The position numbers and the translations under genes were made by a program. Of a DNA stretch of 5,880 nt, positions 1-4,176 are shown one piece after another. Location of the stretch: the NCBI RefSeq assembly GCF_030013595.1, contig NZ_CP122773.1. One strand, 5' to 3'. Every line of letters starts with the position of its first letter. Within the stretch, counting starts at the first letter, position 1. The notes under the pieces were generated by a model that ran no database searches, was not told the origin of the DNA, and saw only the letters and a program-made list of their open reading frames with translations. The DNA comes from Escherichia coli (lineage in GTDB: Bacteria; Pseudomonadota; Gammaproteobacteria; Enterobacterales; Enterobacteriaceae).

Positions 1-1554
1 ATGATAGTTAAATTTCATGCCAGGGGAAAAGGTGGTGGCAGTGGTCCGGTTGATTACCTGCTGGGGAGGGAGCGTAACCGCGAAGGCGCAACGGTGCTTC
101 AGGGTAATCCGGAAGAAGTCCGGGAACTCATCGATGCCACGCCATTTGCGAAGAAATACACGTCCGGTGTTCTGTCGTTCGCGGAGAAGGAGCTGCCGCC
201 GGGAGGACGTGAAAAAGTGATGGCGAGCTTTGAGCGTGTACTGATGCCCGGTCTCGAAAAAAATCAGTACAGCATCCTGTGGGTGGAGCACCAGGACAAG
301 GGACGGCTTGAGCTGAATTTTGTCATTCCGAACATGGAGCTACAGACCGGAAAACGCCTCCAGCCGTACTACGACCGCGCAGACAGGCCTAGAATTGATG
401 CCTGGCAGACGCTGGTAAATCACCATTACGGGCTGCATGACCCGAACGCCCCGGAGAACCGCAGGACGCTGACACTCCCTGATAACCTGCCTGAAACGAA
501 ACAGGCGCTTGCTGAGGGCGTCACGCGAGGTATAGATGCACTTTACCATGCCGGAGAGATAAAAGGCCGTCAGGATGTGATTCAGGCGCTCACTGAGGCG
601 GGGCTGGAAGTGGTCAGGGTGACGCGAAGCAGTATCAGCATTGCAGATCCGAACGGCGGGAAGAATATCAGGCTGAAAGGAGCATTTTATGAGCAATCTT
701 TTGCAGACGGGCGCGGAGTTCGAGAAAAAGCTGAAAGAGAGAGCCGAATCTACAGAGAAAATGCTGAACAACGAGTTCAGGAGGCTCGGCGAATCTGTAA
801 GCGAGGCTGTGACATCAAACGAGACGAAAATCAGAGACGCTATAGCCCTGTTCACAGCCTCGACAGAGGAATCGCTGGAAAAACACCGGGAAGGGGTGAA
901 AGAGGCGATGATGCAGCACAGGAGGGACGTGTTAAAGCTGGCAGGGAATACGGGCATGATGTTACTGGGGATAGTCTTTCTCCTGTTTACCGCGAGTGGC
1001 GGGACGCTCTGGTATCTTGGAGGGAGGATACAGGCGAACCTGGAAGAAATCAGGAAGCAGGAAGAGACATTGCAGAAACTGAACGCGAAGACATGGGGCG
1101 TGGAGTTTGTGCAGGACGGGAACAGGAAATTCCTTGTCCTTCCGTACGGGAAATCAGCGGAGGTGATTCCCTTTCAGGGGAAAGAGTGGGTACATCTGAA
1201 GGAGTGACACAGAGTGACAGAGCTGGAAACACATTTGCTGAACGCCTTAGAGCAGCTGCAACAGGACTATATGCAGCGGCTGAGCGAATGGGAGAGCGCC
1301 TTCGTGGAATTGCAGAAGATGTTTTCGCTTACGCAACGGGACAACGCGATGCTGAACGAGCGGGTCATGCAGTTGAGTCAGCAGGTGCAGCACTTGAGCG
1401 AGCAGACAGAACGCTTGAGCCAGTTATACAGCGAGAACTGGAGATAAGAGAGGAACGGCTGATACAGGAGCGCGAACATGTGTTATCCCTGGAACGGGAG
1501 CGTCAGCCGGAAATACAGGAACGCACGCTGGATGGCCCTTCGCTGGGATGGTGA
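1..1554 (+). CDS. mbeA: Mobilization relaxase MbeA (ColE1-type)
   Basis: 517-aa ORF starting at ATG at base 1; N-terminus MIVKFHARGKGGGSGPVDYLL and overall sequence match my recollection of ColE1 MbeA; GC-rich backbone composition; mbeB and mbeD nested in an alternate frame as in ColE1. Confidence 0.9.
   Translation: MIVKFHARGKGGGSGPVDYLLGRERNREGATVLQGNPEEVRELIDATPFAKKYTSGVLSFAEKELPPGGREKVMASFERVLMPGLEKNQYSILWVEHQDKGRLELNFVIPNMELQTGKRLQPYYDRADRPRIDAWQTLVNHHYGLHDPNAPENRRTLTLPDNLPETKQALAEGVTRGIDALYHAGEIKGRQDVIQALTEAGLEVVRVTRSSISIADPNGGKNIRLKGAFYEQSFADGRGVREKAERESRIYRENAEQRVQEARRICKRGCDIKRDENQRRYSPVHSLDRGIAGKTPGRGERGDDAAQEGRVKAGREYGHDVTGDSLSPVYREWRDALVSWREDTGEPGRNQEAGRDIAETEREDMGRGVCAGREQEIPCPSVREISGGDSLSGERVGTSEGVTQSDRAGNTFAERLRAAATGLYAAAERMGERLRGIAEDVFAYATGQRDAERAGHAVESAGAALERADRTLEPVIQRELEIREERLIQEREHVLSLERERQPEIQERTLDGPSLGW
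689..1207 (+). CDS. mbeB: Mobilization protein MbeB, encoded inside mbeA in a different frame
   Basis: 172-aa ORF; ATG at 689 preceded by AAGGAG (677-682); hydrophobic segment MMLLGIVFLLFTASGGTLWYL; same nested arrangement and length as ColE1 mbeB. Confidence 0.8.
   Translation: MSNLLQTGAEFEKKLKERAESTEKMLNNEFRRLGESVSEAVTSNETKIRDAIALFTASTEESLEKHREGVKEAMMQHRRDVLKLAGNTGMMLLGIVFLLFTASGGTLWYLGGRIQANLEEIRKQEETLQKLNAKTWGVEFVQDGNRKFLVLPYGKSAEVIPFQGKEWVHLKE
1214..1447 (+). CDS. mbeD: Mobilization protein MbeD, nested in mbeA frame-shifted
   Basis: 77-aa ORF with GTG start at 1214, GGAG at 1201-1204; begins 7 nt after the mbeB stop; position and size fit ColE1 mbeD. Confidence 0.7.
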   Translation: MTELETHLLNALEQLQQDYMQRLSEWESAFVELQKMFSLTQRDNAMLNERVMQLSQQVQHLSEQTERLSQLYSENWR

Positions 1555-1559
1555 AACCA

Positions 1560-1730
1560 TGAAAAATGGCAGGTTCATTGGATTAAGGCGGACTAATGTG
1601 CTCTGTGCCATCTGGTTGCATAGGTATTCATACGGTTAAAATTTATCAGGCGCGATCGCGGCAGTTTTTCGGGTGGTTTGTTGCTATTTTTACCTGTCTG
1701 CTGCCGTGATCGCGCTGAACGCGTTTTAGC
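1560..1730. promoter_or_regulatory. cer-like accessory sequences (ArgR/PepA binding region) of the multimer-resolution site
   Basis: ARG-box-like TGCATAGGTATTCATA at 1617-1632, about 100 bp from the Xer core as in ColE1 cer; the stretch matches my recollection of the ColE1 cer accessory sequence almost base for base; contains inverted repeat 1649-1664 / 1701-1715. Confidence 0.65.
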
Positions 1731-1759
1731 GGTACGTACAAACTGTTGTTATGTTAAAT
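1731..1759 (+). other. XerC/XerD core recombination site (cer-like, variant central region)
   Basis: GGTACGTACAA (1731-1741; 10/11 to cer XerC arm GGTGCGTACAA), 7-bp central ACTGTTG (1742-1748), TTATGTTAAAT (1749-1759; identical to the dif XerD arm, 10/11 to cer TTATGGTAAAT). Confidence 0.7.
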
Positions 1760-1781
1760 ACTGATGGGCTTTCCTGATTGA

Positions 1782-2696
1782 TTATCCGAAGATCAATCCC
1801 CAAACACTTTTAGCTACAGAAACAATGGCTTTCTTGGCGACTTTAGCCACTGACGCTATTGGTTTAGGTAGTACGGTGTCTATTATATCATCAATAGCTC
1901 TATCTACGGTGTCTGCGAACCCGTCCTTTGCCGTTTCTACAATTTCTTTTGTTTTTATTTCGTCTTTTACTTGATGCACCACTCCGCTCTGTGCTTCCTT
2001 TGGGAGCGATCTTACTATTGCCTCCACTAACCTTGAAATGTTATAACCTTCATTCGCAGATACAGATATAACGGGATGTTTGGTAAAACCGAATCGTTCT
2101 ATTAAGTATTCTTCCTTTTTTCTAATATTTATTTGTTGTGAGGGTGATGGTTGGTGTTTTTCTTCATCCCATTCGCGGAATGGCTCAATCTTGTCGACTT
2201 GGTTTAAAACAAACAACACTTTTTCATCACCACCAACTGGTTTTAAAACATTTTTATAAAAGTGCTCATCAGCTGAAAATGCTCGATCATCACCTTTAAC
2301 AACCCAAAGCACCAGATCTAATTCTGGGAGAAGATTTTTATACAACTCTTCATATTCTATATCTTTAGCTTCATTTTCACCTACACCTGGTATATCTATT
2401 ATTTTAATTGTTCTATCACCAAATGAAATTATTAATTCCTGAACCTTTCTCGTGCATGCTTCTACATCACTCACTGCACATACATTACCTTTAAAGATAG
2501 AATTACATAGGCTGGATTTACCAGCGCCGGTTTTACCCATAATCCCTATTACTGGTTCGTAATTAATAACATTTCTAATTTTGTTATAGACAGACTTGCG
2601 AATCTCTTTAGGTAGAACATCCACAGCTTCTTTGATTAATTTTATACCTTGCGTATTGTTTTCCATAGTTACTATTTTCCTCATTTTGTTGTTCAT
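1782..2696 (-). CDS. P-loop GTPase, YfjP/YeeP/YkfA-like (50S ribosome-binding GTPase / MMR_HSR1-type domain)
   Basis: Walker A GKTGAGKS (nt 2514-2537, minus), G3 DIPGVGE, G4-like NQVDK; stretch VIGIMGKTGAGKSSLCN...DxPGVGE...LDLVLW resembles E. coli prophage GTPases YfjP/YkfA as I recall them. Start is ambiguous: ATG at 2696 lies 5 nt after the upstream gene stop; ATG at 2666 has an AGGAA 9 nt upstream; the track's ATG at 2753 gives a K/R-rich extension overlapping the upstream gene and has no SD. Confidence 0.8.
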   Translation of the reverse strand: MNNKMRKIVTMENNTQGIKLIKEAVDVLPKEIRKSVYNKIRNVINYEPVIGIMGKTGAGKSSLCNSIFKGNVCAVSDVEACTRKVQELIISFGDRTIKIIDIPGVGENEAKDIEYEELYKNLLPELDLVLWVVKGDDRAFSADEHFYKNVLKPVGGDEKVLFVLNQVDKIEPFREWDEEKHQPSPSQQINIRKKEEYLIERFGFTKHPVISVSANEGYNISRLVEAIVRSLPKEAQSGVVHQVKDEIKTKEIVETAKDGFADTVDRAIDDIIDTVLPKPIASVAKVAKKAIVSVAKSVWGLIFG

Positions 2697-2701
2697 ATGA
2701 A

Positions 2702-3136
2702 TTAACGGAAGCTTGTTTTTCTTTCTTCTTTTTCTTCCCCGCATACAGAACATTTGTAATGGCGATAGGTATCAGAACTCCCACTAAGATACCAATTGTG
2801 TCTTTTACCATGAACTCGCTCTGTAAAACATCTCACGCATCTTTCTTTCACATTGCAATAATCATCGACTGCAATTTCAACAAATCTTTCATGCCTTTCG
2901 CCTTCTTGTTCAGCGCCACAGTCGATACACTTTTTTACAGTTGTGCACTTGAAATCGTATTTATAATTTTCCTCTCCGTATTTATGCTGTTCTTTTTGTA
3001 TAGTGCGATTGCAGTCAGGGCATAGTTTAGAATATTTACAAGTCTCACCATCAATAAGCTTATAGTTTCCTCCGTGTATACCTACCCCACACTTAGCCTT
3101 GATTGCTGCATTTTTTATGCTATCCCAAAAGCCCAT
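2702..3136 (-). CDS. Cysteine-rich putative zinc-binding protein (three tandem C-x5-C-x2-C...H modules plus terminal CxxC)
   Basis: 144-aa ORF; SD GGGAG 8 nt upstream of ATG at 3136; 12 Cys; C33-x5-C39-x2-C42, C64-x5-C70-x2-C73, C94-x5-C100-x2-C103 with periodicity ~30 aa, each followed by His, and C129-x2-C132; AT-rich like neighbours. Confidence 0.75.
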   Translation of the reverse strand: MGFWDSIKNAAIKAKCGVGIHGGNYKLIDGETCKYSKLCPDCNRTIQKEQHKYGEENYKYDFKCTTVKKCIDCGAEQEGERHERFVEIAVDDYCNVKERCVRCFTERVHGKRHNWYLSGSSDTYRHYKCSVCGEEKEERKTSFR

Positions 3137-3181
3137 GGAAAAATCTCCCTACGATTAGTTGATATAAGTTGAACAATTCAT

Positions 3182-3225
3182 CGACATGATTATACACGTA
3201 TAGTGTGTGGATATATAAAAATGAG
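3182..3225 (-). promoter_or_regulatory. Candidate sigma70 promoter for the zinc-ribbon/GTPase operon
   Basis: Perfect TATAAT on the minus strand (complement of 3189-3194) about 46 nt upstream of the 3136 start codon; -35 is weak (TATATA-like); AT-rich intergenic region. Confidence 0.3.
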
Positions 3226-3363
3226 TATGGATTTATGCTCTGTATAATGTTGTTGTTATATTAAATATAGAGCTGAAAAAGTGGGGGCACTGGATAAACT
3301 TCGTGTTTTTCCCGCAAAGATAGTATTGGAAAGTCATTGTCTAATTCATCCAAGATAAATATT

Positions 3364-4176
3364 TTACGAATTTGTGAGTTTGCTTGAGATTTTTATATAT
3401 TCAGCCTTTATTAACTCATTGCCATATTTTTTCTCGAGCCTTTTAACAATGAAATGACCTCGAGCCATATCTTGATAATAGTCGGTAAACATTGTGTTTA
3501 ATGTGGCTCCAGTTAGTGCTCCAATAACGGGAACGACTTGAGCTGCCATTTTTTCCGTAATAACTATACCAAATCTTGTTGCAACTTTTTCTATTAACGA
3601 AGCTAACCATTTTCCTGTTTGTACTGAAGATGCGTTTTTGACAGCAATGTTAGAAATTTCTTTGGATAAATCTTGTACGATCTCGGCAGTCAAACTTCTT
3701 GTTGCATAGTATGCAGTATTAGCTGCATCATCGTCATCAGATGGTCCTCCCAAGGAAAACACCTCTAAGCAGGCCAGTTTGGTATCAATATTATCTAGCT
3801 CAAAACCTTCACTTCTTGCTATGTCAGCAATTGAACGAAGCATAATTGTCGTTGAAACCGGTAACTCAATTGCTAATGCAGAAAAGCCAAAAGCGCCACC
3901 AATGGCTCCAGATACGGCCGCAAAGAATTTATTTGTCTTAGTTGATGCTATTCGGTTAGGTTCATTGTCTAGACTCCATAAGGCTGCATCAGCAGCTTTG
4001 TGGAGAGATTTTTCTACTAGACTATAAATTTGCTCTTCTGCCCCTTTGGGAAGTTTACTCATTAAGTAATCTATTGGGGTTCCAACTAATTGGGTTAATG
4101 TTTCAGTAATTGTATCTTGTTCTAATAATTCTACGGCCCTTTCTAAAGCCCGCAGATCTCCTTCTTCAAGATGCAT
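3364..4176 (-). CDS. Hypothetical protein, possibly EcsC-family-like
   Basis: 270-aa ORF; AAGGA 8 nt upstream of ATG at 4176; Gly/Ala-rich hydrophobic segments (AAVSGAIGGAFGFSALAIELPV, VVPVIGALTGATLNTMF), acidic patch GGPSDDDD; overall impression matches EcsC-family proteins but this is from memory, not a search. Confidence 0.7.
   Translation of the reverse strand: MHLEEGDLRALERAVELLEQDTITETLTQLVGTPIDYLMSKLPKGAEEQIYSLVEKSLHKAADAALWSLDNEPNRIASTKTNKFFAAVSGAIGGAFGFSALAIELPVSTTIMLRSIADIARSEGFELDNIDTKLACLEVFSLGGPSDDDDAANTAYYATRSLTAEIVQDLSKEISNIAVKNASSVQTGKWLASLIEKVATRFGIVITEKMAAQVVPVIGALTGATLNTMFTDYYQDMARGHFIVKRLEKKYGNELIKAEYIKISSKLTNS

Follow-up and report, generated by a model that had tools for sequence, protein, structure and literature searches.

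The window considered here, that is, the whole 5,880-nt stretch of DNA that was analysed, looks like a small ColE1-type mobilizable plasmid, the features of which are collected in Table 1. RNAI is located on the minus strand and RNAII is therefore located on the plus strand. The segment from 1540 to 1741 aligns with the cer site of ColE1 (NC_001371, 3719–3919) at 93% identity over 202 bp, with the alignment breaking off at 1741 inside the XerC arm. The cer region is 100% identical to that of the E. coli plasmid p602A1-12K. Its core aligns with the ColE1 core GGTGCGTACAA-TTAAGGGA-TTATGGTAAAT, from which it differs by a G to A change in the XerC arm, by a central region of 7 bp (ACTGTTG) instead of 8 bp and by the XerD arm TTATGTTAAAT. 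An inverted repeat that an earlier note on this DNA had assigned to the cer accessory region lies between the ArgR box/Pcer element (ArgR box and −35 hexamer at 1616–1632) and the XerC/XerD core (1731–1759). With the 93% identity to ColE1 cer and the ArgR box and core flanking the repeat, this assignment was borne out.

Table 1. Features of the window and of its cer region
Feature	Position	Strand	Basis or remarks
517-aa ORF (mbeA)	1–1554		stop at 1554; a near-identical record annotates the mobilization genes MbeB and MbeD there
Pcer-equivalent candidate promoter	1616–1642	+	−35 TTGCAT at 1616–1621, 15-bp spacer, −10 TAAAAT at 1637–1642; inferred from sequence
Putative Rcd-equivalent RNA gene	1647–1722	+	covariance model R1, 82.5 bits; limits as set by the model
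5′ arm of the predicted Rcd stem	1649–1665	+	1650–1664 of the earlier note plus G1649 and U1665 as G:U pairs; MFE, RNAalifold, covariation
Apical part of the predicted Rcd	1670–1696	+	weak inner helix 1670–1676 with 1690–1696, and near-invariant GGGTGGTTTGTTGC
3′ arm of the predicted Rcd stem	1700–1716	+	contains 1701–1715 of the earlier note; MFE, RNAalifold, covariation
Small GC hairpin plus TTTTA, function unsupported	1711–1728	+	CGCG 1711–1714 with CGCG 1720–1723, TTTTA 1724–1728
cer core	1731–1759	+	XerC arm GGTACGTACAA, 7-bp central region ACTGTTG, XerD arm TTATGTTAAAT; aligns with ColE1 and 22 other cores
MMR_HSR1-type GTPase	1782–2753	−	weak matches to LeoA and LeoBC models, PADLOC defence library
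Cys-rich 144-aa protein	2702–3136	−	no family
EcsC-family protein	3364–4176	−	matches candidate defence model PDC-S29
RNAI	4473–4370	−	RF00106, 68.6 bits, Rfam search

Positions 1782–4176 on the minus strand, located between cer and the origin, form a low-GC cargo block with three genes, which may represent a defence or stress module. The best-matching database record, p602A1-12K (CP100018), comprises 12.9 kb, carries a pair of ColE1-type replicons, two sets of rop/mobC and a transposase of the IS91 family, and looks like a cointegrate containing the plasmid of the window.

The arms of the inverted repeat read GCGCGATCGCGGCAG (1650–1664) and CTGCCGTGATCGCGC (1701–1715) and are separated by a spacer of 36 nt (1665–1700). 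They are Watson-Crick complementary at 14 of 15 positions, G1658:T1707 being the sole exception, which confirms the coordinates, the single mismatch and the spacer of about 36 nt given earlier. A repeat finder placed the same pair of arms within a looser, 34-nt inverted repeat with 71% match. When the entire 5880-bp window was scanned for inverted repeats with arms of 15 nt, no more than one mismatch and spacers of 3–100 nt, this was the single pair of such quality, while dinucleotide-preserving shuffles contained 0.015 such repeats on average (any in 3 of 200). Each ColE1-type arm harbors a GATC (Dam) site, at 1654–1657 and 1708–1711, within CGATCG or TGATCG, and the inner part of the arms is itself palindromic (CGCGATCGCG), hence the element can also be read as a direct repeat 54 bp apart. 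This GATC/palindromic core is probably incidental because it is missing from the other stem types; among the types aligned it belongs to the ColE1 stem type only.

Folded as RNA, the plus strand from 1649 to 1728 yielded a minimum free energy structure of −42 kcal/mol (z −6.7) with a 17-bp stem, in which 1649–1665 pairs with 1700–1716 and three pairs are G:U, and a 7-bp apical helix. For a 70-nt version the z-score was −8.1. The minus strand reached only −27.6 kcal/mol and had an internal mismatch. The ColE1 regulatory RNA Rcd has been described as a single stem-loop of ~70 nt with a conserved 15-nt sequence (PMC5935869; PMC5357621), and this sequence was considered a candidate interaction site (Sharpe 1999, as cited in PMC5935869). 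The stem hairpin of the window spans ~68 nt compared to the 70 nt published for Rcd, a figure taken from secondary descriptions; the published lengths themselves differ (70, 90 and ~95 nt). Read in this way, the arms of the repeat essentially coincide with the two ends of Rcd.

For a comparative analysis, the window was aligned with 23 further cer-like plasmid sites, bringing the total to 24; among them are those of ColE1, of CloDF13 and of small plasmids from Escherichia, Salmonella, Yersinia, Klebsiella and Enterobacter. The arms fall into five or more distinct sequences in this alignment, yet they have remained complementary: 90.2% of the stem cells pair over the 24 sites compared to 38–52% when the partners were slid by 1–3 columns, and compensatory changes were found in 11 of the 17 stem pairs. 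The observed pairing, compensatory counts and covariation score were reached by none of 500 shuffles, although the sites are related and their independence is overstated by this figure despite the five arm types. RNAalifold, which was given no structure, independently predicted the 17-bp stem helix. Among 20 distinct stem haplotypes, the stem positions deviating from Watson-Crick pairing were G:U on the plus strand in 43 cases and A:C in 7, and four of these seven belong to two hybrid sites. Such an asymmetry would not be expected from a palindrome acting as DNA; therefore, the covariation together with the G:U bias indicates, on the strength of the alignment, an RNA stem on the plus strand rather than a DNA palindrome. 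The apical sequence GGGTGGTTTGTTGC (1671–1684) is nearly invariant across the 24 sites, which fits the conserved 15-nt sequence published for Rcd. The pairs of the inner helix (1670–1676/1690–1696) are mostly invariant or changed on one side only, so that this predicted helix is compatible with the data but unproven by them.

The two hybrid sites are natural ones (L004, 308–383, CP057945; L005, 308–383, NZ_CP028636), in which the conserved loop links a ColE1-type 5′ arm to a 3′ arm of the Klebsiella type. Watson-Crick pairing is retained there at merely 9–12 of the 17 stem positions and the covariance-model score is lower by 20–30 bits. These broken-stem Rcd variants may have arisen by homologous recombination in the conserved loop. 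The cer sites are also mosaic around the crossover, with differing cores combined with differing accessory/stem types among the 24 sites.

In ColE1, Rcd is transcribed from the promoter Pcer within cer (Patient & Summers 1993; Sharpe et al. 1999; as reviewed in PMC4393325), which has a 15-bp spacer (PMC5935869). The gene rcd is always co-directional with RNAII, so that read-through comes into cer at its ArgR end (PMC2831885). With RNAII on the plus strand, Rcd is therefore expected on the plus strand of the window as well. A scan that allowed spacers of 14–19 bp and a relaxed −35 element returned, for the two strands of 1540–1770 together, a lone −35/−10-like pair, TTGCAT-15 bp-TAAAAT on the plus strand, whose spacer and direction equal those of published Pcer. 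A standard promoter and terminator scan of 1450–1850 found no promoter, but it considered spacers of 16–18 bp only and hence missed a candidate with 15 bp. The candidate −35 hexamer matches the consensus at three of six positions and overlaps the ArgR box (TGCATAGGTATTCATA), so that its conservation is inseparable from that of the box; the GCAT and AAAA cores of the promoter-like element are kept in the 24 cer-like sites. The stem begins 7 nt downstream of the −10 hexamer, which implies a start at ~1649, the first base of the stem, and 70 nt counted from there end at ~1718, two bases past the stem. In the earlier note, direction and promoter had been regarded as not establishable from the sequence. 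Both can now be inferred, with Rcd predicted on the plus strand and its promoter at TTGCAT(1616)-15 bp-TAAAAT(1637). A transcript of the minus strand was considered and rejected, since that strand folds less stably, would have A:C as its mismatch and gives no covariance-model match.

The covariance model used here (R1) was built from 14 relatives, all with stem sequences other than that of ColE1. It matched the plus strand of the window at 1647–1722 with 82.5 bits and an E-value of 4.8e-22, and returned no match on the minus strand. Other ColE1-type sites scored 73–84 bits and the ColE1 record 66.6. Two of the sites, L008 (29–94, 19.4 bits) and L006 (31–95, 17.8 bits), gave a weak second match ~200 bp upstream of the genuine Rcd; these are probably chance hits or a degenerate copy. 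Searching the whole window against Rfam 15 at E ≤ 1 returned nothing at cer, but only RNAI and a sub-threshold STnc240 match at the origin; an Rcd family is absent from Rfam 15. The cer region of the window (1540–1780) is matched by 3440 plasmid records, and the match carried an annotated feature in none of the 60 of these records that were listed.

Compared with Rcd of ColE1, the element shares the location between ArgR box and XerC arm, the direction relative to RNAII, identical promoter hexamers, the 15-bp spacer and the conserved loop, and the Rcd segment is ~96% identical. Besides C for A at 1670 and T for C at 1686, the window has an extra G at ~1660 that makes the stem continuous, whereas it is bulged in the ColE1 record; apart from this one G missing in the 5′ arm, the arms of NC_001371 are those of the window. 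In that record, position ~3838–3839 corresponds to 1660 and the 5′ arm reads GCGCGATCGC-GCAG without one G, which is present in the window and in all five other ColE1-type sites. The ColE1 record also folds less stably (−36.6 versus −42 kcal/mol) and scores lower (66.6 versus ~83 bits); the missing G may reflect either a true variant or a compression artefact of early sequencing. With parB of CloDF13 and small ColE1-like plasmids from Klebsiella, Enterobacter, Salmonella and Yersinia, the element shares the single long hairpin with its near-invariant apical sequence, as well as a promoter-like hexamer, TAAAAT or TAAAAA, at constant spacing. In contrast to the ColE1-type arms of the window, the arms read, for example, GCGCGTTTCCGGCGG and CCGCCGGAAACGCC in CloDF13 and GTCACGAACGGGGCGG and CCGCCCCGTTTGTGGC in one Klebsiella plasmid. 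RNAI (RF00106), which is also encoded in the window, is like Rcd a small, structured, plasmid-encoded regulatory RNA, but differs in locus and fold and base-pairs with RNAII, whereas the reported target of Rcd, which lacks an Rfam family, is a protein, tryptophanase (PMC4393325).

Different explanations of the repeat have to be weighed against these observations. A functionless match that arose by chance would have to be attributed to nothing beyond the GC-rich, locally palindromic composition; with such a repeat in merely 3 of 200 shuffles and the structure kept across diverged plasmids, the probability of this explanation is practically nil. Alternatively, the repeat could act as double-stranded DNA, either as a protein-binding palindrome or cruciform shaping the PepA/ArgR complex or as a Fis/XerCD-related control site of Pcer, with the RNA structure being incidental. 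It is indeed located in the accessory region that is wrapped by PepA/ArgR and has phased A/T tracts (PMC2831885), and the inner parts of its arms are palindromic (CGCGATCGCG) with a GATC in each arm. But it is the complementarity that has been kept and not the sequence of the arms, as seen from five arm types and compensatory changes in 11 of 17 pairs; the departures from Watson-Crick pairing are strand-biased (on the plus strand, G:U 43 times versus A:C 7 times), and the GATC and palindromic core are confined to the ColE1 type. We consider a DNA site very unlikely.

The structure could also serve as a terminator, either for Rcd itself, by means of the small hairpin and TTTTA at 1711–1728 as had been proposed before, or for read-through from the upstream mob operon before it reaches the Xer core. 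A very stable hairpin of −42 kcal/mol just downstream of mbeA (stop at 1554), followed by a T-run at 1724–1727, would suit such a function. The small GC hairpin plus TTTTA is present as a sequence, but its fold is no better than that of shuffled sequence (−4.3 kcal/mol, z −0.01; 98 of 200 shuffles fold equally well), and it needs the bases 1711–1714 that are used by the long stem, which out-competes it. Neither does the long stem itself resemble a Rho-independent terminator, that is, a GC-rich hairpin with a U-tract directly after it, with the T-run starting 8 nt past its end. Moreover, the CloDF13 and Klebsiella types have GTCTGAG or GTCCGG in place of the T-run, and a consensus terminator scan of 1450–1850 returned no terminator-like site. 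A second hairpin, 1713–1719/1725–1731, which reaches into the XerC arm, looks plausible on visual inspection of several plasmids, but showed no significant covariation (75% paired versus 73% in shuffles, reached by 65 of 500). Taken together, these results speak against the terminator idea, to which we attach hardly any credence.

In the reading that we prefer, to which we give a probability of roughly 0.9, the inverted repeat encodes the long stem of Rcd, the ~70-nt regulatory RNA of ColE1-type cer sites. The element lies inside a cer-type Xer site, flanked by the ArgR box and the XerC/XerD core; judged from the sequence, it has a promoter with a 15-bp spacer that points toward the core and is co-directional with RNAII. 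It is predicted to form a single long stem-loop of ~70 nt with compensatory conservation among related plasmids, and a conserved sequence of ~15 nt lies at its apex. The suggestion in the earlier note that the structure belongs to Rcd is thus supported by the 93% cer identity, the position, the length of ~68 versus 70 nt, the covariation and the G:U bias of the plus strand.

According to this model, transcription would start at ~1648–1650 on the plus strand, driven by a weak promoter that has a 15-bp spacer and overlaps the ArgR box, and would run toward the XerC/XerD core. The transcript is predicted to fold as one long hairpin, with the 17-bp stem displaying the near-invariant GGGUGGUUUGUUGC at its top. 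Rcd of ColE1 was reported to bind tryptophanase, leading to a rise in indole and a delay of growth and division until dimers are resolved (PMC4393325; PMC2831885). By analogy with the ColE1 literature, the promoter would be repressed in plasmid monomers and active in dimers, and the RNA would bind tryptophanase and raise indole, with growth and division pausing until Xer recombination has resolved the dimers. In addition, the hairpin might have a second role, on nascent RNA or supercoiled DNA by the XerC arm, as part of the switch by which Pcer distinguishes monomers from dimers, which we regard as improbable. If this second role were true, the hybrid sites L004 and L005 could mark plasmids in which the checkpoint has been lost or rewired.

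The feature is already known: it is the Rcd checkpoint RNA, well studied in ColE1-type plasmids, in a copy that is almost unchanged here, and as a textbook feature it has little value as a discovery. The contribution of the analysis is to identify the repeat as the structural stem of Rcd, on which the conserved apical sequence is displayed. The practical value lies in annotation, with strong covariation support for the stem and a transcribed strand that can be read from the G:U bias, and the alignment and covariance model would suffice to seed a curated Rcd family.
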